Positions 1,323 through 18,317 of a stretch of DNA of 64,000 nucleotides are shown here, in pieces. Position 1 is the stretch's first letter; every line of letters begins with the position of its first letter. The position numbers and the translations under genes are program-made. Origin of the DNA: a virus (taxonomy: Duplodnaviria; Caudoviricetes); the IMG/VR virus record IMGVR_UViG_3300034071_000801, positions 47,405 to 111,404 of that record, one strand, 5' to 3'. The notes beneath the pieces were generated by a model, which ran no database searches, was not told the DNA's origin, and saw only the letters and a program-made list of their open reading frames with translations.

Positions 1323-3286
1323 TAGAATAAATTTAATTGATTAGGTATAAATACCGTTTTTACTCTTCTGCCTTCAGTTTTAATCTTTAAGACTAATCTG
1401 TTAGCTTTTTCAATGTAGTAATCATAATTGACATTATCAACTTTACTACCTTTTGGTAAGAAATTACAAACTTTACATACCCACTCACCAGCTTCTACTT
1501 GACTTATTGCAGCAGCTCTGGTTTGACACTCTGGATTCTTAATCTTAAAGATCTTATCTCCTTCATTGGATACATAATAGCGTATGAGTTTATCATACAC
1601 TGTCTTCTCACCAGTTGACCTATTGGTCCCTTCATAGTGAAAACTCCTACTAGCTTTCTGTCTTAAGCAAAAATCATAAAGATTAGTGTGAGCACGAATT
1701 GTATGCTCAACAGGAGTACCATGTACAAAATAACTTTCAAGAGCAATAGGTATGATCCTAGCTGATTTGTTTTTATGTAATTCAAAATCAGTAAGGAAAT
1801 CACCTTTTTTCTTAATCTCTCCATTGGTCATAATTGCTAAATAGTCATTCACTGTACTAAAGATAATCTTGGAATAGTCTGTTCTCTCCAACTCATATTG
1901 AGTGATGTCACACCACCATGCATTGATTTCATGCATCAAAGGAATCATGTCTTTCTTAATCTTGATGGTTACACCATCCGTATTAGCAGAGATCACATGT
2001 ATGCCATTGGTTTCATATTTTTCAATAAGCATCATCAAGCTAAGCTCACCAGTAATTGTGGTGAACATAGTTAACTGCCTATCATATATCCAATTCTGCA
2101 TATCAGATGACTTACCATATACAGAGTTAACTGCAAGTTTAAGTGCTCCAACAATTCCTTTAATCTTCTTATCCTTCTTTGCAAAGGGTTTAAGCTCCAA
2201 TCTTTTATCAAACATCTGTTTGTATCCCCGAAGGAATTCCTTACCTAAATGGGCAGGAAACTTACCATTGTTGATAATGATAGCAGGATAATAACTAGAC
2301 ACATCCCAATCAATTATCTCATAGTCTTCATCAGCTTCGAAGATCTTAGGACCATTCTCTGTGTGAAGACCACCTTTCATAAAAGAATACACATTTCCGT
2401 GGAAATCTATATGCTCTTTGAAATCATCTTGCAGACCAAGCTGCATTTTATTAATCTTCTTTAAGAAGTCTTTTAGTTGTGGAGTTTCAAACTTTACATA
2501 CTTAGCAATGCAATTCTTTACATCAATGCTTTTTCTGAAATATCCTTTCTTAGGAAGTTCTCTGTATGTAATTCCTTTCTCTGAACAATAATACTTCTTA
2601 ATCATTTCATCCCCTATCTTAGAGTCTGAATAGTTCATACAAGGGATACCAAATTCAGCTTCAATATCTTGTCTCAGCTCTATTTGATTATTCCCTTTAT
2701 ACAGTGGATGATCTGTATCACCCATAGTTATCTTGTAGAATTCATAAGTTGCATCTACATCATTATAACAATAGTCAATGGTCATCTCCACTTCTTCTTT
2801 TGTCATATTAATTTTGGTATGATGTATAGGCATTTCTTCTATATTCTCAAGATCCATCTCAAACTCTAGTCTTTTAAGACTCACCATTCGATTCTTATTA
2901 TCATAGTGGTGTATCTTGAACAGATCTAATTGTTTGAGGCTTAATTCATGCTCTCTGTACTCAGGGAACACATCATAGTTAGCATCATGAATAACATCAG
3001 CAGCTTTCTGTGCTATTCTTGCACATATTTCTAAATTGCTTAACTCATGCCACTTATCGTAGTTTCTCAAGATCCATTCAACAACTTGACTGTCAAAGCG
3101 TAGATTATTATATCCTACCCAATAAGCATCAGCATGTTCTTCTGTATATCTAACGAATTTATCTAATTGATTCTTCCATTTAGACACTTGAAAGCTCTTA
3201 CCAGCTTTACCAGGCACCATACATACAACTAAGAATAGTTCTTGCATGGTCTCTATGTCATAAATTATTACGTCTTTGTTGTTCAT
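1322..3286 (-). CDS. DNA polymerase, family B, with 3'-5' exonuclease domain
   Basis: Exo motifs YDIET, YNNLRFD, YCYNDV; polymerase motifs DWDVSSYYP, KLAVNSVYG, SANTDG. Confidence 0.92.
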   Translation of the reverse strand: MNNKDVIIYDIETMQELFLVVCMVPGKAGKSFQVSKWKNQLDKFVRYTEEHADAYWVGYNNLRFDSQVVEWILRNYDKWHELSNLEICARIAQKAADVIHDANYDVFPEYREHELSLKQLDLFKIHHYDNKNRMVSLKRLEFEMDLENIEEMPIHHTKINMTKEEVEMTIDYCYNDVDATYEFYKITMGDTDHPLYKGNNQIELRQDIEAEFGIPCMNYSDSKIGDEMIKKYYCSEKGITYRELPKKGYFRKSIDVKNCIAKYVKFETPQLKDFLKKINKMQLGLQDDFKEHIDFHGNVYSFMKGGLHTENGPKIFEADEDYEIIDWDVSSYYPAIIINNGKFPAHLGKEFLRGYKQMFDKRLELKPFAKKDKKIKGIVGALKLAVNSVYGKSSDMQNWIYDRQLTMFTTITGELSLMMLIEKYETNGIHVISANTDGVTIKIKKDMIPLMHEINAWWCDITQYELERTDYSKIIFSTVNDYLAIMTNGEIKKKGDFLTDFELHKNKSARIIPIALESYFVHGTPVEHTIRAHTNLYDFCLRQKASRSFHYEGTNRSTGEKTVYDKLIRYYVSNEGDKIFKIKNPECQTRAAAISQVEAGEWVCKVCNFLPKGSKVDNVNYDYYIEKANRLVLKIKTEGRRVKTVFIPNQLNLF

Positions 3287-3314
3287 GTAATCTTATTTTA
3301 ATTTAAAAATTAAT

Positions 3315-3734
3315 TTATATTTTTTTAATTAAATTATTTACCAATTGCCATTCATGTTTGGTTGCTGATAATTTTTTACATAATGAATGTAAAGCATTTA
3401 AAGCATCGTCAACCCTTTGTTTTTTTGTATTGGAATTAGTTGTTGGTGTAATTGGTAATTTATCTGTTAAATCCCATTCTATTACAAGTCTGTCAGTAAC
3501 CCTACATTTTCTTTCTGATTTTTCGTAAACTACTCCTAAATCTCTTAATTGAGATAGTAATTTCCAAGCGTGTTTGACTTGAATTTGATTTTGGTCAATG
3601 TAGCTTTGTAGTTCTCCAGCAGTACAAGGCGAAGAATAAAGCATAGCATCTAATGTTCTTAATCTTAATTTTGAAAGTAATCCTTCTGCTTTAATTTGAT
3701 TGTAACAGTTAATGGAAGTTGTTCTTGTTCCCAT
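3315..3734 (-). CDS. Putative winged-helix DNA-binding protein
   Basis: 139 aa; PCTAGEL...LSQLRDLGVV...RKCRVT pattern resembles phage wHTH proteins. Confidence 0.5.
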   Translation of the reverse strand: MGTRTTSINCYNQIKAEGLLSKLRLRTLDAMLYSSPCTAGELQSYIDQNQIQVKHAWKLLSQLRDLGVVYEKSERKCRVTDRLVIEWDLTDKLPITPTTNSNTKKQRVDDALNALHSLCKKLSATKHEWQLVNNLIKKI

Positions 3735-4010: not shown

Positions 4011-4259
4011 TTAGACTGGTTTTAATTTACGATTGATAAATTCTCTTACTACCATTCTTGTGATATGTGGTATTCTTTTTGCTTCCAATTCATAATTGAT
4101 AATGTTCTCATACTCAGTCTTACTGATTGAATACATTATACCATTTTTACTACTTGGATTCTCTGATTTAAGAATGACAGATTGTGATTTCACTTTCTTA
4201 ATTATAAAATCTGCCACCTTTCTCTCGTGTGTGTGTTTATTTGCTACTGATAATTCCAT
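4011..4259 (-). CDS. Hypothetical protein
   Basis: Track ORF 4011-4301; the ATG at 4259 (MELSV) avoids overlap with the upstream gene. Confidence 0.55.
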   Translation of the reverse strand: MELSVANKHTHERKVADFIIKKVKSQSVILKSENPSSKNGIMYSISKTEYENIINYELEAKRIPHITRMVVREFINRKLKPV

Positions 4260-4261
4260 AT

Positions 4262-4741
4262 TTAAATTTCTTCTAATCCATCGTTTAATGTTACATCCCA
4301 ATCTTCTAGATCATCATCTTCTTGAAGAAAAGATAATATAACTTTATCTTCAATTAATGTTGGTTCTAATCCTTCTTCTTCATCATCTATATCAATAGAT
4401 AAGAATCCTTGTTCTTCTCTTAATACAAAATTAATATCATCTAATGTAATGTCTCTTAATTCATCAGTATCAGGACCATCATCCCACCAACCAATTTGAT
4501 CTTGATTTATTACTACTACTTCTGGATGATATTTTGTATAACTATCAATGATGATGATTAGTTCTACTGGTGCACCATTCTTGCTCATGAACTCATCCAT
4601 GTCTTCAGGAACTTCTTCAAGCTCCCATAGTTCAACATATGGTTCAATTACACCTACAGATATTCTGTTGACAAAGAGCATACCCTCCTCTAATTCAAGA
4701 GGAAGATAGCTTTTTAATGCAATTTCTGCTGTATACCACAT
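4262..4741 (-). CDS. Hypothetical acidic protein
   Basis: 159 aa, coupled to the upstream stop. Confidence 0.7.
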   Translation of the reverse strand: MWYTAEIALKSYLPLELEEGMLFVNRISVGVIEPYVELWELEEVPEDMDEFMSKNGAPVELIIIIDSYTKYHPEVVVINQDQIGWWDDGPDTDELRDITLDDINFVLREEQGFLSIDIDDEEEGLEPTLIEDKVILSFLQEDDDLEDWDVTLNDGLEEI

Positions 4742-7199: not shown

Positions 7200-7565
7200 T
7201 TATTTCTTTTTAAATTGTTCAAACCATTGGTTAAAATCTTCATTACTTAATGTTTCATATTTAGAAAGTATTCTAACTACATCTAATTGACTATAACTTC
7301 TTTCTTGTTGCTTATTATGTCCATATTTCTCAATAAGTCTTATTGCTGAAGCATCTGATTTTGCAAGTAATAAAAATTTTATATCTTCCAACAACGCTTC
7401 TTCAAGAGTGGTTTCTTGTTTAGGTTTCTTTTCTAGTGATTCCATTAGTTTAAGTTTACATTTTTGACATTGTAATGCATCTATAAATCCTGTAGAGATA
7501 ATAGTTCTACATGTATGACAGAGAGTTGCCCCTCTGCCATTATTAAACTTGTGTATAGGTTTCAT
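7200..7565 (-). CDS. Hypothetical protein with N-terminal Cys4 zinc-binding motif
   Basis: CHTC...CQKC; likely start ATG 7565 (MKPIHK). Confidence 0.6.
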   Translation of the reverse strand: MKPIHKFNNGRGATLCHTCRTIISTGFIDALQCQKCKLKLMESLEKKPKQETTLEEALLEDIKFLLLAKSDASAIRLIEKYGHNKQQERSYSQLDVVRILSKYETLSNEDFNQWFEQFKKK

Positions 7566-7566
7566 A

Positions 7567-7941
7567 TTATTTGTGAAATTCAATTAAATATCCTTCGAAT
7601 ATAATAAGTCTAAGACATGTATCATCATCAAATAGTTGTAATGTAATACTCACACCATCTGTATCAACACATTCAATCATTTGAAATCCATCTCCATTTA
7701 CTGTTTTACCATCTTTGGCACCAGTAATTTGATGTAGCCTTTTAATCTTACCACTGGTGTAGTAGATTACAATGTCTTTCACATTATCAGCATTGAATAC
7801 AACAGTGATTTCTGATTGTACCCATGGTTGTAATACACCTTTCTCTTTAGTAATATAAGAGGTGTATTTCTTAACAAATGTATCTTGTGCAGATACTGTT
7901 ATGCTCAATGTTAGTAGAGCTCCTAATAATAGTTTTTTCAT
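7567..7941 (-). CDS. Exported protein with Sec signal peptide
   Basis: MKKLLLGALLTLSITVSA|QDT: basic n-region, hydrophobic core, VSA cleavage site, Gln at +1. Confidence 0.7.
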   Translation of the reverse strand: MKKLLLGALLTLSITVSAQDTFVKKYTSYITKEKGVLQPWVQSEITVVFNADNVKDIVIYYTSGKIKRLHQITGAKDGKTVNGDGFQMIECVDTDGVSITLQLFDDDTCLRLIIFEGYLIEFHK

Positions 7942-8245: not shown

Positions 8246-8310
8246 AATTTCTTTTGTTAATGATTAAACAATTAGGCTCCTGCTATTACACAAGAGCCCT
8301 TTTGCCCTCC

Positions 8311-8457
8311 TTAATAACCCAACTGATGAAGTTGGTTTATATTGGCTTCTACAATATACACACCCTGTGATATTGTACATGCAAACGCTATACTCATTGC
8401 GAATGCTAATTGTCTGAACTGATAAAACTCAGTTGGTTTCATTTGAATTGTTTTCAT
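8311..8457 (-). CDS. 48-aa hypothetical protein (not in ORF track)
   Basis: MKTIQMKPTEFYQFRQLAFAMSIAFACTISQGVYIVEANINQLHQLGY*; preceded by the TCCTTAATAA motif and an A-rich leader. Confidence 0.6.
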   Translation of the reverse strand: MKTIQMKPTEFYQFRQLAFAMSIAFACTISQGVYIVEANINQLHQLGY

Positions 8458-8488
8458 TGTTATTTATTATTAAGGATTAATACATAAT

Positions 8489-8518
8489 AAGAAAAGCCCC
8501 TATGTTAATAGAGGCTTT
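8489..8518 (-). terminator. Intrinsic terminator closing the RNA operon
   Basis: Minus strand AAAGCCTCTAT-TAAC-ATAGGGGCTTT followed by TCTT. Confidence 0.65.
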
Positions 8519-8677
8519 AATAGGACCTTCTCCCTTGGGAGATGTCAATTGTTGAGATTAGGAACATTTCTTCCCTATAAGTACTCAACTCCTTCTCTGC
8601 GTGGAAAGGACTTAACATTCGTGATGTGCAAACTATCCAATGTCTGTTACTGTGCTATTTGCGTCAAGTAACTGCTG

Positions 8678-8746
8678 TGATTGAGACAGGATTCGAACCT
8701 GTGTGTAAGGATATATGTCCATCGCATACCATTCTGCCACTCAATC
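8678..8746 (-). tRNA. tRNA-like element (pseudo-tRNA, anticodon undetermined)
   Basis: Acceptor stem GATTGAG/CTCAATC, D arm GCA-GAATGGTA-TGC, T arm ACAGG-TTCGAAT-CCTGT; anticodon arm ATGGA-CATATA-TCCTT has only a 6-nt loop. Confidence 0.75.
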
Positions 8747-8796
8747 TAGTGGAGGTGGGGAGATTCGCATTTTGTTAATAACTTGTTGTCACATTA

Positions 8797-8828
8797 TTTG
8801 CATATGTCTAGGACATGTTGTAGATTTA
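8797..8828 (+). promoter_or_regulatory. Putative Bacteroidota sigma-A promoter for the homing endonuclease
   Basis: TTTG-N20-TAGATTTA (one mismatch to TAnnTTTG), 23 nt before ATG 8852. Confidence 0.5.
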
Positions 8829-8851
8829 CACCATATCTTAAATTCTTTATC

Positions 8852-9271
8852 ATGACACTACAATACCTTTCTGGATTCTTTGATGCTGATGGTTCAATAT
8901 CAATGAGTAAAAGTTCTAAAAACGATACTTACAAATGTATCAAAATAGATTTTACTAATACTTACATAACAATTCTTGAAGAGATTCAAAAATACTTGTT
9001 AAATGAGCATGGTATTAAAACACATATATCAAAAAAAGCAATTAGAAAAGAAAACCATAATATTGGTTATTCTTTATCTTGTAATAGTAATCAAACTTGT
9101 TTGAAACTTTGTAAACTTATAGATTCTCATCATCCTAAGAAGTTACATCGTATAAATACAATTTTGAAATATCATGATGCAGTTACCATAAGAAATGGTA
9201 AATACACAGATAAACAAGCTACAAGAAGATTAGCCTACGAGAGACTATTCTTTCTTCCTACATTTCTGTAG
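8852..9271 (+). CDS. Single-motif LAGLIDADG homing endonuclease, antisense within the intron
   Basis: MTLQYLSGFFDADGSI LAGLIDADG helix, FTNT strand; 139 aa from ATG 8852. Confidence 0.9.
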   Translation: MTLQYLSGFFDADGSISMSKSSKNDTYKCIKIDFTNTYITILEEIQKYLLNEHGIKTHISKKAIRKENHNIGYSLSCNSNQTCLKLCKLIDSHHPKKLHRINTILKYHDAVTIRNGKYTDKQATRRLAYERLFFLPTFL

Positions 9272-9781
9272 GGATCGGACTATATCATCATCTGTTCTAG
9301 ATGTTGCTTACTGTGGGCTCACCGTAGTGTCCCTAGTCTCTGAACCTTCTCACTTCTTCCAGTGAGCTTGGCTGCTGATTGGCATATTACCCTCGCAGGT
9401 GTAACTTAGCGTTCCAGCAATTCAAGCAATTTTTAATTATACATCCCTGTATAATGAGTCCAATTTCCAAACTCCCGTGTTGCTTACTTCAAAAATACAA
9501 TTTTATACAGCTTATTTAGGGTCAAGCTAGGCTTAACGTTCCCACCACTCTATTTAATCTAATAGAGAAATCTTGAGGTAATTTAGGCTGCTAAACCAAC
9601 GATTACATCCTCATTCAATAATGAGAATACTTTGTTCATGTTAGCTTCGATTTGTGCGTTTGCTCCTAGAGCCACTACACGACTTGTGTTTTTGCCATTT
9701 AAAATAATTCACCTTAGTTTACAGTTATCTCTCTGGCTGAATTGTATAATCTATAATAACCAGTCAATTCCAGTCACCCCC

Positions 9782-10370
9782 ATTTCCCTCGTGTGAGGGC
9801 ATGTATCAATTGTTGTGTTGTTGACCAATGATCAACTTGTATTAGCACCCATCATTATAGCCTTGCAAGTTAGCCCTCGCTGCTTACTTAATGATTAGGG
9901 TCACGTAGTTAATAATACAGTTTGCAGACTGTTAAAGTATAAAATTACAAAAATTACACTTATTAACTACTTGCTTGGAACTCATTTGTGTTGTGACAAA
10001 GTGGCTTAAAAGCTTAGTCCAATCTCTTTCCTTTCTCAAGGGAACAACACATCTACCATTACTGATAGTATCTTTATGTAATGTTTAGTATTTACACTGT
10101 ATTTAAGCACAGGATTATTTCATTACAAAGGTATTCAATGTTTAGCCTGTTTGAGAGTTTATTCATTGCAACTCACAAGTGTTCCCTAACATCAGAGACC
10201 AATCCTACAAGTTTAATGTGTGTGGATGTAGGACCACATTCTTTTGTATCACTCTAGTGAGTTTAAAACTCATAATATGCATAATATAGGTAAGTTCAAT
10301 GATACGCAGCACATACATTGACTATTTAAACTGCTATGTGGCGTTTATAGTCCCCAGTGATTATACAATA
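9782..10370 (-). ncRNA. Candidate large ornate ncRNA (~590 nt)
   Basis: No ORF of 60 aa or more; many nested helices and GNRA-capped hairpins; lies between a consensus promoter and the tmRNA 5' end; boundaries approximate. Confidence 0.65.
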
Positions 10371-10376
10371 TCCCTG

Positions 10377-10408
10377 CAAATATAATCTACAGGGAGTAAC
10401 AAAACAAA
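10377..10408 (-). promoter_or_regulatory. Bacteroidota sigma-A promoter driving the RNA operon
   Basis: Perfect TTTG (10408-10405)-N20-TATATTTG (10384-10377). Confidence 0.75.
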
Positions 10409-10420
10409 TAATTAATCAAA

Positions 10421-11812
10421 TTATAATTTAATTTGTTGTTCACCTACACCTTTAGCATAGCTGAACACTTCCAATTCTTCTGTCACCTTAATCTGTTTAC
10501 CATCTGTCTCAAGACAAAGATCTCTCAACTCATCACTAAATTGCATTAATGATATGGCATTCACTTTATAAGGAAACTTCTCTGTGTTGATATCATCTTG
10601 ACCATCATTGATGATTAAGATCTCTGGCTTCTCTTCTGATAAATCAATATCAAGATTGTGAAGCTTACGATCAGCTATCTCTTTAGCTACATAATTAACC
10701 ATATCACCAATTTCTGTTCCTCCACCATTAGGATCATTAGAGAATGTTTGCCAAAATGCAATTACATCTTCTCTATCCTTTATGTGTTTGAACTCTAAGT
10801 CTTCTGGATTATGTACAAAATAACTAAAGAACACTTCAGCTTCACCTCTCATAACATACTTGAATCTGTCTATTAATATAGCATTTACCCAAATCTGTTT
10901 CTCTTCTTCATTCATACTACCAGAATAATCTAATAGAATGATAATCTTCTGAATCTGCTCTTTTCTATCAACAGGAACATTCACTGTTAAGTCTTTAGTT
11001 AAGAATTTAGTTCTGAAATTAGGAAACATCTTCTGATATAATGGCATCATGTGTATTTGAGCATAATCTCTCATAATCATTGTTGCATATTGATCAGAAT
11101 TAGCCACTATCTTCTCAGATATCTCTTTCTCCACCTTAAACTCATTACCAAACTTACCAACAAGAGATATATGATTCATAATCTCCATCTTCTTATCCTT
11201 GCTTAGTTCATTTAGATCTAATTGTTCATTGATATCTGGATCAGAATAAAGACTTCTATCAAAATCAAATGTTTTTGTTGGATCCACTTCATCATCTTCA
11301 TCATTATCATCTTTTTCTTTACCAGATGATTCTTTAAGCTTCAGATAGATAGCAATAGCTTGTTCAAGAGGTGTAAATCCTGGAACATATTGTTCATATA
11401 CAGCATCAAGCAAAGGTTTCTTCTTTAGATATTCTCCTTTGTCTTCATCAGATAAATTATCTACATCTTTATACTTATCAGCTATATATTCTGTTTCATC
11501 AATCATCTTGAAATAGCACACACGTGCTAACTCTTTGATCAAATCAATAGATGCTTGCTTCTTAACACCTCTCACCTTAGCTTTGATGTCTTTAGCACTT
11601 GGTGTTAGATAATTGACTGGATCTTTAACAAATAGATCTTCATCATTATCTTCATATGATACAACAAATGAGAAATTAGACCAAGAACTCTTGGACCATC
11701 CACTACCACCATATTTACTTTTCCAGCCTCCACTACTCTTCTTAGGAGTATAGGAAGGGGCATAATAATCACCGTAGTAATCATCATACCCATTATCCCA
11801 TAAACTTGCCAT
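10421..11812 (-). CDS. von Willebrand factor A (VWA) domain protein
   Basis: MIDAS motifs LLDYSGSM, GGGT, IINDG; coupled to the upstream AAA+ gene. Confidence 0.88.
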   Translation of the reverse strand: MASLWDNGYDDYYGDYYAPSYTPKKSSGGWKSKYGGSGWSKSSWSNFSFVVSYEDNDEDLFVKDPVNYLTPSAKDIKAKVRGVKKQASIDLIKELARVCYFKMIDETEYIADKYKDVDNLSDEDKGEYLKKKPLLDAVYEQYVPGFTPLEQAIAIYLKLKESSGKEKDDNDEDDEVDPTKTFDFDRSLYSDPDINEQLDLNELSKDKKMEIMNHISLVGKFGNEFKVEKEISEKIVANSDQYATMIMRDYAQIHMMPLYQKMFPNFRTKFLTKDLTVNVPVDRKEQIQKIIILLDYSGSMNEEEKQIWVNAILIDRFKYVMRGEAEVFFSYFVHNPEDLEFKHIKDREDVIAFWQTFSNDPNGGGTEIGDMVNYVAKEIADRKLHNLDIDLSEEKPEILIINDGQDDINTEKFPYKVNAISLMQFSDELRDLCLETDGKQIKVTEELEVFSYAKGVGEQQIKL

Positions 11813-13128
11813 TATATGAATGAAGCAATTTGAAGGTTCTTAGCAAACTTATCCATAGCTTGTGTAGCAGCTTTCACTAATTGTGAATGTATTTGTGCAA
11901 TATCATCACTCACTGCTAATCCTTTGATGTCTGTCAATTGTTTAGTAAGATCACCAAGAGCATCTCTGTACATCTTCTCATCATCTCTAGATACCAATGG
12001 TAAATGAGTTAGAGTTTCAATACTGAATGTAAGAGATGCAGATAAATCTCTGAACTTAATTGTAGCCTCAAACTTCTTAATAGCTTCAGCTATCAATGAT
12101 GGTTTCTTAGAGAACTCAGCAATAAAGCTTAATGATTCTGGTCCACATTGGTCATACACTTGATATGCTGTTACAGCTACACGTGGACTAATTGTAATAC
12201 CATTCTTTGCATACTCTTGTAACAAATAAGGAATCACTGGATCCACATTGTCTACACCAAACTTACTTTCTAGTAATTTGTTGTAGCTGATCTCTGTGTA
12301 ATTATCCCAGATAACATTCAATTCAAGAGGAAATCTTTCCATCAATGCTTTCAATGACATATTCTTTGAGAATTCATCACGAGTTCTATTAGTACAACAG
12401 ATGATGAATTTAGTCTCAATAGGAAATATCTGTGTACCATTTCTAAATGTACCACTTGATAATATATCCTTTAATTGCTCTAAGATGAAATCAGGAGCAT
12501 CAAACATCTCTTCGAATATAACAAAAGGATGATTCATAAATGAATTCTCTACAAGATATTCTATTTTACCTGTCTTCTCAAACATAGGTATATCAAGACC
12601 ACCAAACAATCTATCTGTTGTCATACCTGTACCCATTGTAATAACATAAGGTTCAATACCTTTTGATTTTAGAAAATCAAGTGTCATTTCTGATTTACCA
12701 TGTCCTCCTGGACCATATAAAACTACATTTTTACCTGTTTGAAACCCTACATTAAGGACATTTACTGTTTTGTCCATAAATACGAACTTCTCTGCTACTG
12801 GATTTGCTTTTGCTGATTTCTTTACTTGTGTTGCCATTGTTTTTTCTTTTGTTATTAAGGAATTGTTTAATTTAATTTGTTCTAATACTTCTTCTATGTT
12901 TACTTCTTCTATTTCTTTGATGATACAATTGTTTGATCGGAACACCCAACCATTTATTTCAAATGTATCATCTCTCTCAATGTATTTAATGAATTTATCA
13001 GGAACCTCTTGTTCCATATAATCATTCATATCACCACCTTCAGCCCATTCATCTGGTATATCATATTCATCATTCCAAAGACCATCATCTTTAAACTCTT
13101 GTTCACTTTTAAATCTATATTTACTCAT
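11812..13128 (-). CDS. MoxR/RavA-like AAA+ ATPase with acidic N-terminal extension
   Basis: Walker A GPGGHGKS, Walker B VIFEE, sensor CTN, ALMERF; likely starts ATG 13128 and/or internal ATG 12837. Confidence 0.88.
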   Translation of the reverse strand: MSKYRFKSEQEFKDDGLWNDEYDIPDEWAEGGDMNDYMEQEVPDKFIKYIERDDTFEINGWVFRSNNCIIKEIEEVNIEEVLEQIKLNNSLITKEKTMATQVKKSAKANPVAEKFVFMDKTVNVLNVGFQTGKNVVLYGPGGHGKSEMTLDFLKSKGIEPYVITMGTGMTTDRLFGGLDIPMFEKTGKIEYLVENSFMNHPFVIFEEMFDAPDFILEQLKDILSSGTFRNGTQIFPIETKFIICCTNRTRDEFSKNMSLKALMERFPLELNVIWDNYTEISYNKLLESKFGVDNVDPVIPYLLQEYAKNGITISPRVAVTAYQVYDQCGPESLSFIAEFSKKPSLIAEAIKKFEATIKFRDLSASLTFSIETLTHLPLVSRDDEKMYRDALGDLTKQLTDIKGLAVSDDIAQIHSQLVKAATQAMDKFAKNLQIASFI

Positions 13129-13137
13129 AGCTTTGAT

Positions 13138-13164
13138 ATAAAAGAGAGCCATTACAGCTCTCTT
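13138..13164 (-). terminator. Intrinsic terminator-like hairpin
   Basis: AAGAGAGC-TGTAATG-GCTCTCTT followed by TTAT. Confidence 0.55.
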
Positions 13165-13169
13165 GTTAG

Positions 13170-13448
13170 TTATTCATTAATGATGTCAATTGGATAATCT
13201 TCATCATCATTTTCTTCTTCAGATCCACTAATGATATCAAACATATCACCTATGTCTCTCAACTTTTCACCTAAATGTTTAGCAAGATTCTTGAGAGCTT
13301 CTGTAGTTAGACTATCTAACCATTCTTGTTGCTTCTCTTGTGTACAATCTTCAAACACTGTAGGTTGTCTTCTCTTATCACCTGGAAGTGTATCAAATAT
13401 ATACACACCAGATAGATTTCTTCTTGTTGGACTAGTCATCATCACCAT
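13170..13448 (-). CDS. Hypothetical protein
   Basis: 92 aa, RRNLSGVY...VFEDCT motif. Confidence 0.65.
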   Translation of the reverse strand: MVMMTSPTRRNLSGVYIFDTLPGDKRRQPTVFEDCTQEKQQEWLDSLTTEALKNLAKHLGEKLRDIGDMFDIISGSEEENDDEDYPIDIINE

Positions 13449-13923
13449 CTCCTTCTTCTTCTTGCTGTTTTCTAGCTAAGTCTTTAAGGAAATTACCAAG
13501 TTCTGGTGGTAATGAATCACCATCAATTGGATCACCTGCACTACGACCTTCTGTAAGTTGATCAAGCATCTCTTTGATGTGAGGTGGAAGATCATCACCA
13601 TCTAATTTAATAGATTTAACTGAATCTTTCATACGCTCAAATTTATCTTTTAAACTATCTGCAAATCCATCTAGTTTATCTTGTAAATAGAATGATGACA
13701 TCACAACTAATTGAGAATAGCTAAATTCATTAGCACATGTCTCTACCAATAAACTTGGTGACATATCATCTTTTACTTCTTTGTTCTCATCAAAGACGAA
13801 CTCTTTTAATGTACTTGCAATTTGATCTTGTAGATCAGTCATGTAAGCATCTGTTACACCAATTGCATTGTTAAGCTTTTTTTGACCATGGTCAAAGGTG
13901 AAAATACTTGTTTGTGTACTCAT
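13432..13923 (-). CDS. Hypothetical acidic protein
   Basis: 163 aa, preceded by TCCTTAATAA. Confidence 0.75.
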   Translation of the reverse strand: MSTQTSIFTFDHGQKKLNNAIGVTDAYMTDLQDQIASTLKEFVFDENKEVKDDMSPSLLVETCANEFSYSQLVVMSSFYLQDKLDGFADSLKDKFERMKDSVKSIKLDGDDLPPHIKEMLDQLTEGRSAGDPIDGDSLPPELGNFLKDLARKQQEEEGDGDDD

Positions 13924-13943
13924 GTTATTAAGGATTTAATTGA

Positions 13944-14099
13944 TTACTGGTTTATTGTTTGTCTAATGTCTATTGTTCTTTCTCTTATAATTCCATTTCT
14001 GAAATTATATATCACTTCTACGATTAATCTCTTAGCTTTAATTGCTTTAAATCTATCTGTTGATGCTACTAATGTACCTTTGTTCACTCTAGGTCTCAT
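13944..14099 (-). CDS. 51-aa basic hypothetical protein (not in ORF track)
   Basis: MRPRVNKGTLVASTDRFKAIKAKRLIVEVIYNFRNGIIRERTIDIRQTINQ*; ATGA overlap with the upstream stop. Confidence 0.6.
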   Translation of the reverse strand: MRPRVNKGTLVASTDRFKAIKAKRLIVEVIYNFRNGIIRERTIDIRQTINQ

Positions 14100-14332
14100 A
14101 AAACAAGTTTTAATATTGATGTTATTAGATTAAATGCTACTAATGAATAGAAACATATCTTAAGAACTCTATTCTCTTTCTTATAGAGAGTGATTAATCT
14201 ATCAGCTATGCGTAGCCTTTCATCTTTAAGCTTAATCAGCTCATCAGCTGTTTGTAATGCTTGTTGTTGCATATCTATCAATTCATTCATTGATTGTAAT
14301 GCATCTTCTAAATTTCTTTCTTTAATTGCCAT
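14096..14332 (-). CDS. Coiled-coil protein with C-terminal membrane anchor
   Basis: Heptad-like N-terminus, hydrophobic C-terminus. Confidence 0.65.
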   Translation of the reverse strand: MAIKERNLEDALQSMNELIDMQQQALQTADELIKLKDERLRIADRLITLYKKENRVLKICFYSLVAFNLITSILKLVL

Positions 14333-14351
14333 TGTTATTTGATTTAATTGA

Positions 14352-14510
14352 TTATTTATTTGAGATCATCATACCAATAAGAATTGGTAATGTAAAAGGA
14401 CTTAATAAAAATATTACCCATTCTTTTGATGTAATTGTATCAACTGATTCATTTGCTTGAATCATCATACCTAGCATAACTAGGTATGATATAATAATAT
14501 ATGTTGTCAT
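14352..14510 (-). CDS. 52-aa membrane protein (not in ORF track)
   Basis: MTTYIIISYLVMLGMMIQ...WVIFLLSPFTLPILIGMMISNK*; start overlaps the upstream TGA. Confidence 0.6.
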   Translation of the reverse strand: MTTYIIISYLVMLGMMIQANESVDTITSKEWVIFLLSPFTLPILIGMMISNK

Positions 14511-14701
14511 CATAATCCAATAAGATTATCAAAACAACTCTCTAACAAGAATGTTAGTTGTTGTCTTTCATGAAACAATATGTCTTGTTGCTCTTCAATC
14601 ACATGTATGTTTGTATCATCATGTGCATCTCTTAGACTATCTAATGCATGTATTTCATTCTTGATAGTCTGTAACCTTTGTTCAATGATTTCTGTTCTCA
14701 T
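14510..14701 (-). CDS. Hypothetical protein
   Basis: 63 aa, helical, packed operon. Confidence 0.65.
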   Translation of the reverse strand: MRTEIIEQRLQTIKNEIHALDSLRDAHDDTNIHVIEEQQDILFHERQQLTFLLESCFDNLIGL

Positions 14702-14703
14702 AT

Positions 14704-14910
14704 TTAATAGTTGTTAAGTTTTTCTTCAAGATCACATCCTACAATAACACTTGGTATCCAACCAAATATCATCATACATATTAATGTTCCAACATTTGTG
14801 TAACATTCTTTTAATGACATATCAGATAATAAATATCCAATAAGACTCATAAGAGTCCATGTAGCAATAAGCGTAGCTATTATAGCTAACATAATTTTTG
14901 TTGATTTCAT
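14704..14910 (-). CDS. Small two-helix membrane protein
   Basis: 68 aa, hydrophobic; preceded by TCCTTAATAA. Confidence 0.65.
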   Translation of the reverse strand: MKSTKIMLAIIATLIATWTLMSLIGYLLSDMSLKECYTNVGTLICMMIFGWIPSVIVGCDLEEKLNNY

Positions 14911-15036
14911 TTTATTTGTTATTAAGGAGTTTGTATTGTAAAATCATTTGTAGTTATTCATAGCGAAAATGACCCCTCATTTGTTGTTTGAAGGTATATA
15001 TGTACTACATCCTACTGTTCTAGGACTGTAAATGAT

Positions 15037-15249
15037 TTAGAATTTCCAATGTTCTTCAAAATCTGGTGTATAACCAGTCTTATCTACTAATGGTCTAGAC
15101 TTATCTATTAACCATCTCACTTTATATCTACCAAGCTTATCTTGTTTGATTGTCTGTAAACATCTATCACCAAGAACAGCTTTAAAGCCTTCAGCACTCT
15201 TTAGACTGTTGAAGACTCGTGTAGCATATCTTTGTTCTTTATTCTTCAT
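15037..15249 (-). CDS. Hypothetical protein
   Basis: 70 aa. Confidence 0.6.
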   Translation of the reverse strand: MKNKEQRYATRVFNSLKSAEGFKAVLGDRCLQTIKQDKLGRYKVRWLIDKSRPLVDKTGYTPDFEEHWKF

Positions 15250-15706
15250 AATATAATGGTGACATATCTAGTTTAAATATTCTTCTCTGCCATATTATTC
15301 TAAATGCTTCTATTTCATCAGATGTAAACCACATACTGTCTGTATGTAATACATTTTTACCAATCCACCAAGAGAAATGATAATGCTTGTTATACATATC
15401 ACTAATTTCTTCGTGTTTATACATAGCAAGTTCACTATGATAATCTTCTAATGGATCATAATAGAACTCATCATCATTATCACTATCATCATAATAATCA
15501 TCATCGTAATCATTATATTCAACTATTATTGGACTATATTGATCAAAGACTTCTTCTTCTAATATATAATAATGATCTATACCATCATAGTTTATAAGAT
15601 CATCTAAATATCTATCTGCATCTTCTCTATGAAGAAACATCTTTCTATTGTGTGGAGCATAATAGTCATCATTATAATGCTTCCAATGTGCTGTAAATAT
15701 ATTCAT
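15239..15706 (-). CDS. Asp/Tyr-rich hypothetical protein
   Basis: Likely start ATG 15706 (MNIFTAHW) directly after TCCTTAATAA. Confidence 0.65.
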   Translation of the reverse strand: MNIFTAHWKHYNDDYYAPHNRKMFLHREDADRYLDDLINYDGIDHYYILEEEVFDQYSPIIVEYNDYDDDYYDDSDNDDEFYYDPLEDYHSELAMYKHEEISDMYNKHYHFSWWIGKNVLHTDSMWFTSDEIEAFRIIWQRRIFKLDMSPLYYEE

Positions 15707-15806
15707 ATTATTAAGGAGTTTTAAAATTATATAAACAATCAATTATAGCAAACTTCCTATTGCTCTTCTATTATTGTACCACAGTATTGGTAATTGATTG
15801 TTATTT

Positions 15807-15829
15807 AAAAAGGCCCGTAGAAGAGCCTA
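15807..15829 (-). terminator. Intrinsic terminator
   Basis: Minus strand AGGCTC-TTCTAC-GGGCCT-TTTT. Confidence 0.55.
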
Positions 15830-15835
15830 TAATTA

Positions 15836-15967
15836 TTATTCTATATAAGAAGAAAGTTTATCTCTAAGTAATAACATATCTTCTGATTCATTACCTGATT
15901 CAAACATATATACTCTTATTGTATATAATAACTCTTGTATCTCTTCCTTGGTTAGTTCTACTACCAT
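15836..15967 (-). CDS. 43-aa hypothetical protein (not in ORF track)
   Basis: MVVELTKEEIQELLYTIRVYMFESGNESEDMLLLRDKLSSYIE*, followed by a terminator. Confidence 0.5.
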   Translation of the reverse strand: MVVELTKEEIQELLYTIRVYMFESGNESEDMLLLRDKLSSYIE

Positions 15968-16067
15968 AATGCTATATTTATTGGTTATGTTCGTTGATTA
16001 TTATGTTTATTATTTATGCTCTATTATTGTGTCTATGTCTCCACTGCTATGTTTTTATTGTCACATA

Positions 16068-16215
16068 AAACTTTTTACGAGGGAGAAATAAACTTTTTAC
16101 TCCTATATATATAGGTGTAGTCTATTTCTTTAGGTTTCCCACCCAAATGTTCTATGAACCCACCCTTATATATATAATGTATAAACTTTTTACTACGGAG
16201 AAATAAACTTTTAAT
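16068..16215. repeat. Intergenic iteron-like direct repeats
   Basis: AAACTTTTTAC at 16068, 16090 and 16183, variant at 16205; two pairs joined by GGAGAAAT with 22-bp spacing. Confidence 0.75.
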
Positions 16216-16217
16216 AT

Positions 16218-16243
16218 AATAACAAGCCCAAATTAATGGGCTT
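16218..16243 (-). terminator. Terminator-like hairpin after ORF 16259-16774
   Basis: AAGCCCA-TTAATT-TGGGCTT followed by GTTATT. Confidence 0.5.
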
Positions 16244-16258
16244 GCTATTGCATTGCTA

Positions 16259-16774
16259 TTAAACAGCAATGAGGTCTTCGAAATTGATTGCTCTTTTAGC
16301 AACTTCTTTCTTAAGCATATCGTCTGTGATATTAGTTCTTGTGCTTGACATGTCTGTTGCACCTGTGAAACCAATAGAATAAAGAACCAATTGTTTTTCC
16401 TCTCCTGTTTCTTCGTCTATTACCATGTAAGGCTGACCAAAGTTTGCGTCATTCTCGTCTGTAATAGTTTGAGGAAGTTCAAGGATTGGTAATGTAGCAA
16501 CATTCTCCAATCTTTCTTTCAACTCGCTTGCTGAAGATGATTCACGCAACCAATCTCCTACAGGTTTAGAACAATTAACGTATTCATAATCTCCTGCTTT
16601 ATTAACAAGTTTGATAGAAACTTTCTTTAACACTTTAACACCATTAACAATGGTGCCTTTGAAATTCTTTTCGCTTGCTAATTCGTGGTAACCGTCTTTA
16701 CCTACAAATTCTGCAACTGTACCAATAGTTGCCAATGTGCTTACTCTTTCTGAAGCTTTTTTAAATTTTAACAT
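16259..16774 (-). CDS. Hypothetical (probably early) protein
   Basis: 171 aa stand-alone ORF with A-rich leader and downstream hairpin. Confidence 0.75.
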   Translation of the reverse strand: MLKFKKASERVSTLATIGTVAEFVGKDGYHELASEKNFKGTIVNGVKVLKKVSIKLVNKAGDYEYVNCSKPVGDWLRESSSASELKERLENVATLPILELPQTITDENDANFGQPYMVIDEETGEEKQLVLYSIGFTGATDMSSTRTNITDDMLKKEVAKRAINFEDLIAV

Positions 16775-16882
16775 GATTTCTGTATTTTAATTATTAATTT
16801 ATAATGAGTTATTTACTCCGAATGTAAAAAGGGTTTTGGGATGGAATCCCAAATAGGGTATTGATGGAATCAATAACGTCTG

Positions 16883-17110
16883 TTACAACGCTATTAATTC
16901 CATAAGATTATTATTATAAGTTTGAAAGGTTATTAAGCCTGATTCAAACACCACGATTCCTGTAACCATTTGTCTATTGTTATTAACAACAGCTCTGAAT
17001 GGTAATTCAGGAATCTCCAATCCTAATGGATGTGAGTATTCAACACCATTGATGTCAAACAATCTGTTTGCGTGATTAGGATCACGATCATAAATCTCAA
17101 CTATCTTCAT
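16883..17110 (-). CDS. Hypothetical protein, first gene of the leftward arm
   Basis: 75 aa, ATG start. Confidence 0.65.
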   Translation of the reverse strand: MKIVEIYDRDPNHANRLFDINGVEYSHPLGLEIPELPFRAVVNNNRQMVTGIVVFESGLITFQTYNNNLMELIAL

Positions 17111-17448
17111 AGTGATAAGTATTAAAGATTAATAATAATAATAATTCTTTTTGATTAGATTACATTCTACTTTAGAACATTGCTGTTCACAGGAATCTGA
17201 TACCTGCTAATCAAAAAGAATAAAGATAAGAATGACTGACTACCATTCTGTGTACCGTTGAGCAGGTTGAAGCTATCTGTGTTTTTCTTCAGCAGACAAA
17301 GGTTGCATTTTGGATTGCAACTACCATTGAGTATCAATGGGGGAATACCCCAACCACTCAATTTGTAATGGGGGTTTTGATTTGGAGTGGTCAACACCAG
17401 CACACACATGGGGGGTATTCATATTTTGAAAAAAAAATTTAAAAAAAA

Positions 17449-17481
17449 TTTGGTGGCTAAGCAAAATATGTTATACCTTTG
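17449..17481 (+). promoter_or_regulatory. Bacteroidota sigma-A promoter for the rightward (packaging/structural) arm
   Basis: TTTG-N21-TACCTTTG with upstream A-tracts; a second -7 element TATCTTTG at 17582-17589. Confidence 0.7.
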
Positions 17482-17614
17482 GGGTGGTGGTTGGGCGAGG
17501 TTATCTAGTACAGCTATATAGAAAAACTTCATAATATAGCATTGCAAAATAAAAAAGTATACATTGTATGTGTTTATTGTATATCTTTGTCATATGATTA
17601 GATAAAACTACATT

Positions 17615-18013
17615 ATGAAACCAATGATTATACAAAAACTGAAGAAGAATGTTTCTACAGACATTCAATTAGCTGAGAAGTATTATAGTATACTATCAGC
17701 TATTAACAATCTTCATCTAACAGAAAGAGAAATTCAATTGATATCTTTTACAGCTATTAAAGGGAACATTACATATGCTAATGTAAGAGAAGAATTCTGC
17801 AGAACATATAATAGTACATCTCCTTCTATCAACAACATCATCTCCAAGTTAAAGCGATTAGGTATATTTATTAAGGAGAATGGAAAGGTGAAGGTGAATC
17901 CAATCATTGTTATAGATTTCAACAAGGATTTAACATTAGAAATAAAACTAGTACATGAAGAAGCCAATATCAATGTCAGTGAAGGAGTGGATCATCAAGA
18001 GGATGGCAATTAA
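17615..18013 (+). CDS. Putative winged-helix DNA-binding protein
   Basis: LTEREIQLI...SINNIISKLKRLGIF pattern. Confidence 0.55.
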   Translation: MKPMIIQKLKKNVSTDIQLAEKYYSILSAINNLHLTEREIQLISFTAIKGNITYANVREEFCRTYNSTSPSINNIISKLKRLGIFIKENGKVKVNPIIVIDFNKDLTLEIKLVHEEANINVSEGVDHQEDGN

Positions 18014-18317
18014 CATGGTTATATCAGAGAAGATAATTGATCAAGTCATAAATCATCAGTTTGATTCTGCCAATGATGCTCTTAACACAAATGAAAGTGT
18101 AGAGATTTCTGGATTTGGGAAGTTCTTCTTTAATGCAAAAAAAGCCAATACACATTATAATAAGTTGCTACAGATAAGACAAGCTTATGAGAATACATTA
18201 GCTGATCAATCTATTACAGATAAGAAAAGACATTCTACAGAATTAAGAATGATAACAGTGTTAAATGATATCAAAATATTAAAACCAAAAATCAATGAGC
18301 CTAAGTCAGATATATGA
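17955..18317 (+). CDS. HU/IHF-like DNA-binding protein
   Basis: ALNTNESVEISGFGKF matches the HU/IHF signature. Confidence 0.7.
   Translation: MKKPISMSVKEWIIKRMAINMVISEKIIDQVINHQFDSANDALNTNESVEISGFGKFFFNAKKANTHYNKLLQIRQAYENTLADQSITDKKRHSTELRMITVLNDIKILKPKINEPKSDI

Follow-up and report, generated by a model that had tools for sequence, protein, structure and literature searches.

Organisation of the locus

On the minus strand of the window (the whole 64,000-nucleotide stretch of lake-phage DNA analysed here), between a vWA-like gene and a tmRNA gene, lies an intergenic region in which positions 10148-9840 are the gene for a stand-alone structured non-coding RNA of ~310 nt (Table 1). The tmRNA 5′ end falls at about 9785: the stretch 9785-9635 shares 79.6% identity with sequence that Rfam calls tmRNA (58.2 bits) in Flavobacterium phage FpV4, and 89% with a tmRNA called by ARAGORN in homologous locus L054. 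A group I intron with a homing endonuclease lies 300 nt from the RNA, matched by Rfam inside the tmRNA at 9256-9479. The RNA is not part of the tmRNA (RF00023), since phage tmRNA homology begins at 9785 and relatives keep the tmRNA without 9784-10369. In RNA-library contigs of related phages exactly these 586 nt are missing, with 9783 joined to 10370 and only AAA(A) between, and the ORF-proximal stretch 10413-10370 is thereby joined directly to the tmRNA. By eye, an AGGGA-A motif follows a hairpin at both edges of this cassette, so that ordinary recombination can explain the indel.

Table 1. Positions of the RNA features upstream of the tmRNA gene, in window coordinates.
Feature	Position	Strand	Description
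Terminator-like hairpin and U-rich run	10371..10395	-	Ends the preceding vWA-like gene (stop 10421); upstream limit of the RNA-gene block
Upstream non-core stretch	10238..10369	-	Mosaic common piecewise to some relatives; may hold a promoter
U2 module	10149..10237	-	89 nt, three hairpins; separate small element directly before the core here
Conserved core	9840..10148	-	309 nt; P1-P7 and variable hairpins V1-V4
P1 hairpin	10148-10146 with 10131-10129	-	Loop 10145-10132 is the near-invariant UAAACAUUGAA
P2	10077..10127	-	10127-10121 with 10083-10077; encloses variable hairpin V1
P3 hairpin	10053..10068	-	GNRA cap, loop GUAA 10062-10059; preceded by junction UAAAGAUA (10076-10069)
P4	9987..10051	-	10051-10045 with 9993-9987; encloses P5 and variable hairpin V2
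P5	10044-10041 with 10031-10028	-	Conserved 9-nt loop CUUGAGAAA at 10040-10032
J4/6	9974..9986	-	Near-invariant single-stranded junction; family consensus AAUGAGUUCUCAG
P6	9902..9973	-	9973-9960 with 9915-9902; encloses V3; absent from a subclass of relatives
P7	9840..9901	-	9901-9898 and 9895-9889 with 9857-9851 and 9850-9847; encloses V4; followed by conserved 3′ tail GCUAA
Spacer	9786..9839	-	Two hairpins (9836-9820, 9799-9786) between core and tmRNA 5′ end

Blastn finds different sub-pieces of the upstream stretch in different relatives (L073, L068, L063, L072 and L054), with ~1.08 kb between upstream pieces in L073. A sigma-70-like match lies at 10299-10272; a scan for sigma-70-type promoters returned 6 sites against 9.3 expected from shuffles, which is not above chance, and only 9 of 54 loci have the Bacteroidota -7 motif TAnnTTTG in the 120 nt before the core. 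U2 is known in six copies, in which 3 of 24 predicted pairs carry compensatory changes, and the L004 copy sits on the downstream side of the tmRNA, apart from the core. The 54-nt spacer does hold the two hairpins that a sequence-only reading of this DNA had placed at 9820-9836 and 9786-9799, and is common only to L063 and to L033, where it also separates core and tmRNA.

Conserved structure of the core RNA

The core belongs to a large, almost exclusively phage-borne RNA family that no Rfam model recognises. We described the family with two half covariance models, R2 for the 5′ domain and R1 for the 3′ domain, which match the window at 10148-9970 (157.3 bits) and 9996-9840 (92.1 bits), respectively, and scored covariation within each half. 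Family-wide conservation is limited to 10148-9840; it ends at 10148, 10370-10149 not being conserved, and the core, 309 nt here, measures 261-504 nt in relatives. All helices of the 5′ domain are present in the window copy, namely P1 with its UAAACAUUGAA loop, P2, the GNRA-capped P3, and P4 enclosing P5 with its CUUGAGAAA loop, as are the features of the 3′ domain, comprising the junction AAUGAGUUC..AGCAA (the junction reads CA in the window and UC in most family members), P6, the abutting P7 and the tail GGGUGCUAA.

Both sides of the helix have changed in 3 of 3 pairs of P1 (96.5% of alignment cells paired), 6 of 7 pairs of P4 and all 4 of P5, and compensatory changes occur in every one of the six pairs of both P2, where the result was repeated in a second homologue set, and P3 (98.2% of cells paired). 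In the 3′ domain P7 has compensatory changes in 8 of 11 pairs (6 of 11 in the second set) and P6 in 2 of 9, with 96.2% of cells paired; P6 is absent from 10 of the 28 distinct sequences of the second set. J4/6 remains near-invariant in that set also, which was gathered with a different pattern. The near-frozen sequence of the family consists of the loops UAAACAUUGAA and CUUGAGAAA, one GNRA loop, two junctions and the 3′ tail, while V1-V4 vary freely; the V4 of the window is common to L054 and L014, and its V1 is not. Two full copies abut head to tail in three loci (L028, L041 and L075).

Several elements of this fold had been picked out beforehand by eye. The 11-bp stem 9905-9915/9960-9970 and the arms 9848-9857/9889-9900 proved to be the conserved minus-strand helices P6 and P7, the GUAA-capped hairpin at 10053-10068 is P3, and the GAGA-containing loop at 10031-10040 is that of P5. 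The minus strand is assigned because of U-G pairs, because of a fold z-score of -2.53 on that strand against -0.37 on the plus strand (20 shuffles each), and because every neighbouring tRNA or tmRNA is on the same strand.

Alternative pairings were tried and rejected. RNAalifold on eight sequences paired a 5′ AGG with a 3′ GCU, which was ruled out by L068, L004 (AGC...GCU) and L009 (UCA...UGA), where the changes are compensated locally in P1; it also offered another register for P5, and the variants CAAC/GUUG, AAGC/GCUU and UCAC/GUGA fit the 4-bp register only. A pseudoknot between AGCA of J4/6 and UGCU of the tail leaves the tail variants UUCU and UACU uncompensated, and pairing of the P1 loop with J4/6 (CAUU/AAUG) leaves a variant in L045 uncompensated, judged by eye. 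Covariation gave no intramolecular partner for the GNRA loop or the frozen loops.

We found no conserved ORF in the region, short ones included, the longest ORFs in 9786-10420 being 58 aa (plus strand) and 37 aa (minus strand). Insertions between the conserved blocks can have any length, and changes within the blocks are pairwise compensatory.

Homologues and covariation

An exact 22-mer of the core (20 specified bases) was found in 78 IMG/VR contigs and in at least 119 metagenome contigs, with many more found by a second word, and in only 3 of 185,579 bacterial species genomes. R1 matched 83 of 84 sources, and R2 gave 95 matches. In alignments that were fitted to the model and are hence biased towards the structure, 97.5% of cells in the 5′ domain are paired compared with 82.1% after shuffling (slid controls 34-56%), 25 of 26 pairs are compensatory and 212 cells are doubly changed, against 35.8 ± 4.4; the 3′ domain has 91.0% paired compared with 86.8% shuffled, compensatory changes in 10 of 20 pairs and 46 doubly changed cells against 14.0. 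The second set, gathered with a different pattern, comprised 106 stretches, of which 80 were listed and 56 of these were new; R2 matched 43 and R1 31 of the 56. Here 98.2% of cells were paired in the 5′ domain, with 15 of 26 pairs compensatory, and 94.1% in the 3′ domain, with 10 of 20. Covariation among homologues, which the earlier reading had named as one check on its candidate, is strong in both sets; as both were seeded with exact conserved words, they under-sample the diversity of the family.

Among 50,697 phage records, blastn of the region found Cellulophaga phage phi14:2 only (two records, E = 4e-3), the other six rows being at chance level (E = 8), and 10421-18400 had no blastn match. 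In Flavobacterium phage FpV4 the tmRNA is preceded by 1.4 kb without annotation, and neither R1 nor R2 matched this phage. The carriers are probably phages of Bacteroidota in fresh and sea water.

Genomic neighbourhood

Of 80 loci, 36 have a tmRNA or tRNA gene on the same strand no more than 1.5 kb away (a tmRNA in 22, a tRNA only in 14 more). The tmRNA follows the RNA directly on the same strand in 19 of the 80, as it does in the window, and precedes it in three. Distances can be very small: 3 nt separate the core from the tmRNA start in L054, 2-3 nt separate the end of a tRNA from the core in L038 and L016, and a metatranscriptome contig joins the T-arm of a tRNA to position 10148 with 7 nt between. 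The association with tmRNA is frequent and not obligatory, because 44 of the 80 loci have no tRNA or tmRNA in their available sequence and in three of five long carrier records no tmRNA exceeds the cut-off over the whole length. Candidate 'tRNA 5′ halves' seen by eye directly after the core in L003, L045 and L078 were called neither by ARAGORN nor, in L003 and L078, by Rfam, and were left uncounted.

Terminator-like sites within 90 nt downstream of the core were found at only 5 of 54 loci. By eye, ~15 loci have a protein gene whose start is 20-45 nt beyond the core, and the RNA may act as a leader in some genomes; the downstream genes belong to no consistent family. The commonest neighbour, PHROG 15656 (no Pfam match; 25 of 80 loci), is a mosaic family without fixed position, and we therefore claim no link to a partner protein. 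Upstream genes for a MoxR-like ATPase and a vWA-like protein are common to only 12 and 10 of the 80 loci, respectively. A reading of the RNA as a Y RNA was dropped, given the few loci with MoxR/vWA genes and the lack of any TROVE/Ro60 signature.

Expression and the phi14:2 homologue

Assembled contigs of a freshwater metatranscriptome (X21) reach a summed depth of 102,018 over 10003-10063, the highest depths being sums over the conserved blocks of many relatives rather than the RNA level of this phage; single contigs there have depths of 3,987 (75 nt) and 2,168 (118 nt), and depth over the core blocks greatly exceeds that over the adjoining part of the tmRNA. Depths in a marine metatranscriptome (X19) are 371-655. 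Starts, ends and strand are not readable from the assembled contigs of either run, an RNA library can contain DNA, and zones without contig cover in some RNA runs were left out as evidence.

The homologue in Cellulophaga phage phi14:2 (L001) matches at 3070-3361 (R2 79.2 bits, R1 97.8 bits), and its first conserved block is at 2912. In the surrounding gap of 685 nt (2905-3589) only three ORFs of 34-39 aa are annotated, all on the opposite strand, and the homologue is 670 nt upstream of the tmRNA of that phage. Compared with the window copy it is longer (450 nt, with a large V1) and has a small ORF between RNA and tmRNA. In the phi14:2 record, tiny false ORFs are annotated over the homologue. 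Drobysheva et al. (bioRxiv 10.1101/2020.03.07.982082) report that rightward transcription of two long intergenic regions of this crAss-like phage already exceeds that of most protein genes at the earliest time point and does not fall off afterwards; they give the function as 'to be determined' and describe an abundant long non-coding RNA from the g004-g005 junction. On an assumed gene numbering, we infer that the 2905-3589 gap is this junction. Unlike the present analysis, their paper gives no sequence family, structure or homologues for that RNA.

Possible roles of the RNA

The best explanation overall, which we consider probable, is a stand-alone phage RNA that is made in a run of RNA genes, trimmed free and active in trans. 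It would be transcribed within a run delimited by the terminator-like hairpins at 10395-10371 and 8518-8493 and containing U2, the core RNA, the intron-split tmRNA and a tRNA-like element, and would be released by the enzymes that trim its tRNA-shaped neighbours, through RNase P cleavage where the tmRNA or tRNA behind it begins, or through tRNA 3′-end processing where a tRNA precedes it. The freed RNA would then accumulate as an abundant, stable, trans-acting molecule. Action in trans rather than in cis is suggested because downstream genes belong to no consistent family and because relatives keep the tmRNA without the RNA.

Alternatively, the RNA might resemble ROOL and GOLLD in function and assemble with itself during infection into an RNA-only ring or cage, held together by its GNRA and frozen loops. 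We regard this as unlikely. The RNA shares their genomic habit, being phage-borne, abundant and next to tRNA genes; according to the abstract of PMC12286853, ROOL, GOLLD and OLE form homo-oligomers; and both the near-invariant GNRA loop of P3 and the frozen loops, which have no intramolecular covariation partner, as well as the head-to-tail double copies, would suit such an assembly; against it stand the lack of ROOL/GOLLD homology, a size half of theirs or less, and conserved loops none of which looks self-complementary by eye. Improbable, in our judgement, is a cis-acting leader of the tmRNA or the following gene, acting as a platform for folding or processing, or controlling transcription. 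In its favour, 19 of 80 loci have the tmRNA immediately after the RNA and on its strand, at distances down to 3 nt, and terminators before downstream genes are scarce (5 of 54), but relatives in which 9783 and 10370 are joined by AAA(A) carry the same tmRNA without the RNA, the tmRNA is upstream in three loci, most loci have no nearby tmRNA and their downstream genes no common family, and X21 covers the tmRNA part next to the core blocks to a far smaller depth than the blocks themselves.

The exact indel of 9784-10369 could also be read as insertion of a self-contained element, the RNA being catalytic or the RNA part of a mobile cassette with a ribozyme-like core that would promote its own spread or processing. 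An architecture of frozen core and free peripheral hairpins like that of introns and ribozymes, the exchange of modules between relatives (V4 with L054 and L014, V1 not) and the group I intron with homing endonuclease 300 nt away are in keeping with this quite improbable reading; no intron or ribozyme model matches, however, the element lies between genes rather than within one, several unrelated modules accompany the core, and with the AGGGA-A motif seen by eye at both edges ordinary recombination suffices. Least credible, and in our view very improbable, is the one ornate RNA of ~590 nt (10370-9782) joined by long-range helices that the sequence-only reading proposed. The 586 nt do form a single indel unit and may well be one primary transcript, and the minimum-energy fold of 10420-9786 pairs distant parts, but conservation ends at 10148, only 309 nt being conserved, and the upstream 220 nt are a mosaic of separately distributed modules whose pieces occur apart in other phages (L073, L004). 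The proposed long-range arms pair locally in conserved hairpins: of the helix 10041-10046/10180-10185, positions 10041-10044 belong to P5, with compensatory changes in 4 of 4 pairs, and in place of the GGTCTCT/AGAGATT pairing around it, the GGGAAC and GGTCTCT arms form a local U2 hairpin in all six copies, one of them away from the core. What did hold of that proposal is a large multi-helix non-coding RNA on the minus strand directly upstream of the tmRNA.

If the RNA is, as we favour, a stand-alone product acting in trans, its frozen loops and junctions may form a surface on which a conserved partner in translation, from host or phage, docks, helping the phage to take over or protect translation; this is a speculative guess, which we hold tentatively. 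The likeliest docking partners, again speculatively, would be tRNA-shaped RNAs (tRNA or tmRNA) or the ribosome. Each of the two frozen loops holds a U-N-N-R-A pentamer, which we take to be like that of T-loops, and the tRNA elbow is gripped by T-box stem I, RNase P and the ribosomal L1 stalk. It is conceivable, albeit decidedly unlikely, that the two loops together grip the elbow of tRNA or tmRNA, making the RNA a phage-made platform and a new class of trans-acting tRNA-binding RNA. Were this true, the phage could sequester tRNAs and its own tmRNA, protect them or pass them on while it takes over translation, for example in the face of host nucleases that cut tRNAs.

To our knowledge, large and highly conserved RNAs with frozen junctions have so far been ribozymes, riboswitches or, recently, RNA-only assemblies (ROOL, GOLLD and OLE). 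The uncatalogued family described here is widespread in fresh and sea water and very abundant in at least one metatranscriptome, and the fact that it often lies against tmRNA and tRNA genes points to an undescribed piece of phage translation handling. Its presence in phi14:2, a cultured and genetically studied phage, makes the function directly testable. The family also fills a gap in the catalogue, as annotators now put tiny false ORFs on such loci, e.g. in the phi14:2 record.

Comparison with known RNA families

A cmscan of 8300-10700 with permissive filters (E ≤ 10) gave 12 matches, none of them to ROOL (RF03087) or GOLLD (RF01998), and neither family reached its gathering score in the window. 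The only Rfam match overlapping 9840-10148 was SL2, at chance level (22.6 bits against a cut-off of 41; E = 2.4), and OLE, RNase P RNA, group I and II introns, 6S, SRP RNA and T-box had no Rfam 15 match there; nor did any Rfam family reach its gathering score over the cores of 19 homologous loci or of phi14:2. Of the suggestion that the RNA is either ROOL/GOLLD-like or a new class, the likeness of the tRNA/tmRNA context and a class absent from Rfam remain, and membership in ROOL or GOLLD falls away.

The stable species 1 and 2 RNAs of phage T4 are encoded within a cluster of tRNA genes and freed by the enzymes that process tRNAs; they are much smaller than this RNA, and we know of no sequence relation between them. 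GOLLD and ROOL are large multi-helix RNAs, carried mainly by phages and prophages, often beside tRNA genes and abundant. A screen of IMG/VR reported 8,495 candidate structured motifs in DNA viruses (PMC10690425), among which this family may be included; its main text names no motif beside tmRNA genes. The literature searched, with PMC10690425 and the phi14:2 preprint represented by their main texts, describes the family nowhere except in the phi14:2 remark. Like ROOL and GOLLD, the RNA described here is phage-borne, adjoins tRNA-type genes and appears as an abundant transcript, represented here by deep metatranscriptome contigs. It differs from them in having no match in sequence or structure, a different helix plan and a length of 261-504 nt compared with their ~600-800 nt, and whereas their hosts are Lactobacillales or come from the rumen, this RNA is carried, probably by phages of Bacteroidota, in fresh water and the sea.

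Genomic setting of the RNA

The window derives from a lake-water metagenome and makes up the right-hand end (64 kb) of one virus record of 111,404 bp (CheckV: 97% complete), in which the RNA is present as a single copy. No credible minus-strand ORF was found across the ~2 kb separating the two terminator-like hairpins that bound the RNA block (see table). Sequence comparison identified 9785-9635 as homologous to phage tmRNAs, so the sequence-only reading was right to call a tmRNA here, with an RNA candidate directly upstream of it.

The T-loop of the tmRNA (8768-9785, minus) is interrupted by a group I intron, which is why the Rfam tmRNA model misses the gene; by eye, excising ~9470-8777 restores the T-arm GGGAG-UUCGAAU-CUCCC along with an acceptor stem of 7 bp that includes G3:U70. 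A LAGLIDADG homing endonuclease ORF (162 aa, 8783-9271, plus; Pfam 1.3e-09, 1e-06) lies antisense within the 3' part of the intron, and a tRNA-like element, its anticodon loop apparently one base short, starts a few bases past the tmRNA 3' end.

Features of the RNA block and core, and of related loci (L numbers; L001 is Cellulophaga phage phi14:2)
Feature	Location	Strand	Remarks
MoxR-like ATPase gene	13152-11812	minus	
vWA-like gene	11812-10421	minus	
Terminator-like hairpin	10395-10371	minus	Upstream edge of RNA block
Terminator-like hairpin	8518-8493	minus	Downstream edge of RNA block
Group I intron	9479-9256	minus	Rfam 94.8 bits
tRNA-like element	8746-8678	minus	Rfam tRNA 47.9 bits; no ARAGORN call
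P1			3-bp stem; near-invariant loop UAAACAUUGAA
P2			Helix closing variable hairpin V1
Junction after P2			UAAAGAUA
P3			6-bp stem, GNRA loop
P4			Helix around P5 and V2
P5			4 bp; conserved 9-nt loop CUUGAGAAA
J4/6			Near-invariant junction, 13-16 nt
P6	9905-9915/9960-9970		Helix around V3
P7	9848-9857/9889-9900		Abuts P6, zero linker; surrounds V4
3' tail			GCUAA
89-nt three-hairpin module	window 10149-10237	minus	
89-nt three-hairpin module	L073 1577-1665; L066 5189-5277; L024 8706-8790; L018 7951-8036; L004 3712-3801		
PHROG 15656 family member	window 7200-7583	minus	
PHROG 15656 family member	L001 2194-2904; 23 other loci		
phi14:2 gap	2905-3589		Contains RNA homologue
phi14:2 gap	~4102-4601		Contains most of tmRNA gene (Rfam: 4031-4502)

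Homologues and fold of the core

Over 9786-10420 no Rfam family matched, ROOL and GOLLD included, even when filters were permissive and the threshold was E<=10. Folding against shuffled sequences (only 20 per strand) gave z = -2.53 for the minus strand versus -0.37 for the plus strand. We regard comparative evidence as the decisive support for a structured RNA. A weak blastn match linked the region to Cellulophaga phage phi14:2, whose alignment with the window consists of near-identical blocks interrupted by unrelated hairpins. A 22-letter pattern from the best conserved block, which defined our first homologue set, occurred in 78 IMG/VR contigs and at least 119 metagenome contigs, some of them marine, and in just 3 of the 185,579 species genomes of bacteria and archaea. 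Alignments bounded the conservation at 10148 and 9840, with core lengths of 261-504 nt among relatives. The finding is genuine and merits further study within these corrected limits.

Seven helices were derived from alignments of relatives, and U-G pairs in P3 and other helices set the strand. Both long stems noticed by eye in the sequence-only reading are family features (P6 and P7), as are its GUAA-capped hairpin (P3) and its GAGA-containing loop (that of P5). Of 28 distinct members in the second homologue set, ~10 lack P6. Seven loci (L084, L093, L107, L110, L128, L135 and L138) had a clear 5'-domain match (91 bits) and no 3'-domain match at E<=0.001, and carry either a diverged 3' half or a shorter form of the RNA.

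One covariance model was built for each half (R2, 5' domain; R1, 3' domain). Covariation was counted on alignments fitted to the model, and both homologue sets were seeded on conserved words. The first set (84 sources) had 97.5% of 5'-domain cells paired versus 82.1% when shuffled (slid controls, 34-56%), compensatory changes at 25 of 26 pairs, and 212 doubly changed cells versus 35.8 +/- 4.4. Corresponding values for the 3' domain were 91.0% versus 86.8% (slid controls, 33-44%), 10 of 20 pairs, and 46 cells versus 14.0 +/- 3.1. Because this set rested on one exact word, a second was gathered using another block as the source of the pattern (106 stretches; 56 new loci among the 80 listed). R2 matched 43 and R1 31 of the 56; the 13 matched by neither are presumably chance hits of the looser pattern. 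Pairing in the new loci reached 98.2% (5' domain; 15 of 26 pairs compensatory) and 94.1% (3' domain; 10 of 20). In none of the four tests did any of 500 shuffles reach the observed values.

A cassette of modules

The single ~590-nt RNA originally proposed did not survive comparison: the family RNA accounts for 309 nt of it. Hairpins at 9820-9836 and 9786-9799 exist outside the conserved RNA, in a 54-nt spacer common to L033 and L063 only. The hairpin 10203-10209/10227-10233 and the arms read as long-range pairing belong instead to a separate 89-nt three-hairpin unit, 10237-10149, kept in six loci with compensatory changes of its own. This module usually lies immediately before the core, in L004 past the tmRNA and far from the core; it has no Rfam match and may be a separate small RNA gene. 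Further upstream, 10419-10238 is 96.7% identical to L073, which carries ~1.08 kb of extra DNA before the module, and L054, L072 and others have sub-pieces only. Mosaic upstream sequence, separate unit and spacer together indicate a cassette of modules. RNA-library contigs link 9783 straight to 10370 with AAA or AAAA between (marine assembly X19, depth 68.5; X20, a 5,296-nt contig), so that in close relatives the tmRNA directly follows the vWA-like gene, and 9784-10369 is inserted or deleted as a unit. By eye, AGGGA-A follows a G+C-rich hairpin at both edges, so short-repeat recombination would suffice to explain the indel.

Neighbouring genes across loci

We surveyed 80 sources (the window, phi14:2 and L003-L080, some duplicating one phage). 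A same-strand tmRNA lay within 1.5 kb in 22 (downstream in 19, upstream in the other 3); a further 14 had only tRNA genes at that range, and neither was detected in the available flanking DNA of 44. Spacing can be minimal: 3 nt from core to tmRNA in L054, 2-3 nt from a tRNA end to the core in L038 and L016, and, in one metatranscriptome contig, 7 nt between a tRNA T-arm and 10148. Terminator-like sites occurred within 90 nt past the core in only 5 of 54 loci, and downstream protein genes, where present, had no common family. Five long carrier records have no tmRNA close to the RNA, and two of these encode one elsewhere.

Three loci (L028, L041 and L075) hold two abutting copies, in L028 (3861-4672) full copies at 4021-4364 and 4366-4672 head to tail, with a partial 5' domain ahead of them; L041 and L075 share this arrangement. 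PHROG 15656, a mosaic family of phage proteins that has conserved N- and C-terminal modules and no counterpart in Pfam, recurs at variable positions up to 4.5 kb from the RNA (25 of 80 loci); the window's copy has only the C-terminal module in common. Flavobacterium phage FpV4 has a 1.4-kb unannotated gap ahead of its tmRNA (L002 2098-3500), from which this RNA family is absent.

Expression and possible function

RNA libraries contain this family at very high abundance. All four RNA runs are assembled contigs, which show presence but neither the ends nor the strand of a transcript. Summed depths pool conserved blocks of many relatives and are not the level of this phage's RNA; in freshwater metatranscriptome X21 they were 102,018 over 10003-10063, 50,103 over 10064-10124 and 8,876 over 9942-10002, versus 55-201 over the 5' part of the tmRNA; single short contigs reached 3,987 and 2,168. 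Depth in X19 was 371-655. For phi14:2, passages of Drobysheva et al. (bioRxiv 10.1101/2020.03.07.982082) describe two long intergenic stretches with rightward transcription, the 'g004-g005 and g005-g006 junctions'; starting at the earliest time point, transcripts of both exceeded those of most protein genes, with no later drop. At this place the GenBank record shows a pair of long gaps with only tiny annotated ORFs, and we infer that the transcript of the g004-g005 junction is this RNA's homologue. Three annotated 34-39-aa 'hypothetical proteins' lie opposite the homologue's strand (KC821624.1, 3106-3431) and two more over the tmRNA; all are probably false gene calls.

The data show a phage-borne RNA gene, conserved and structured, that shares the strand of its tRNA-type neighbours, has no terminator of its own and is abundant as RNA. 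It may be co-transcribed with neighbouring RNA genes and released by tRNA-processing enzymes, after which the freed RNA would be stable and act in trans. Speculatively, frozen loops and junctions beside freely varying peripheral hairpins suggest that the frozen parts contact something conserved; the neighbouring genes lead us to guess at tRNA-shaped RNAs or the ribosome. A rival to such trans action is a cis-acting leader for the tmRNA, weakened by relatives that carry the tmRNA but not the RNA and by the large number of loci lacking a tmRNA. Alternatively, the RNA might be a ribozyme or mobile cassette, or might, by analogy with ROOL and GOLLD, form an RNA-only assembly.

Rfam 15 does not contain the family, and full-text searches found no literature description, although the supplementary motif lists of an IMG/VR screen (PMC10690425) may include it; its phi14:2 member has apparently already been observed as an unexplained abundant transcript. 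We place it as a new RNA class within a known kind, the large structured phage RNAs found beside tRNA genes.
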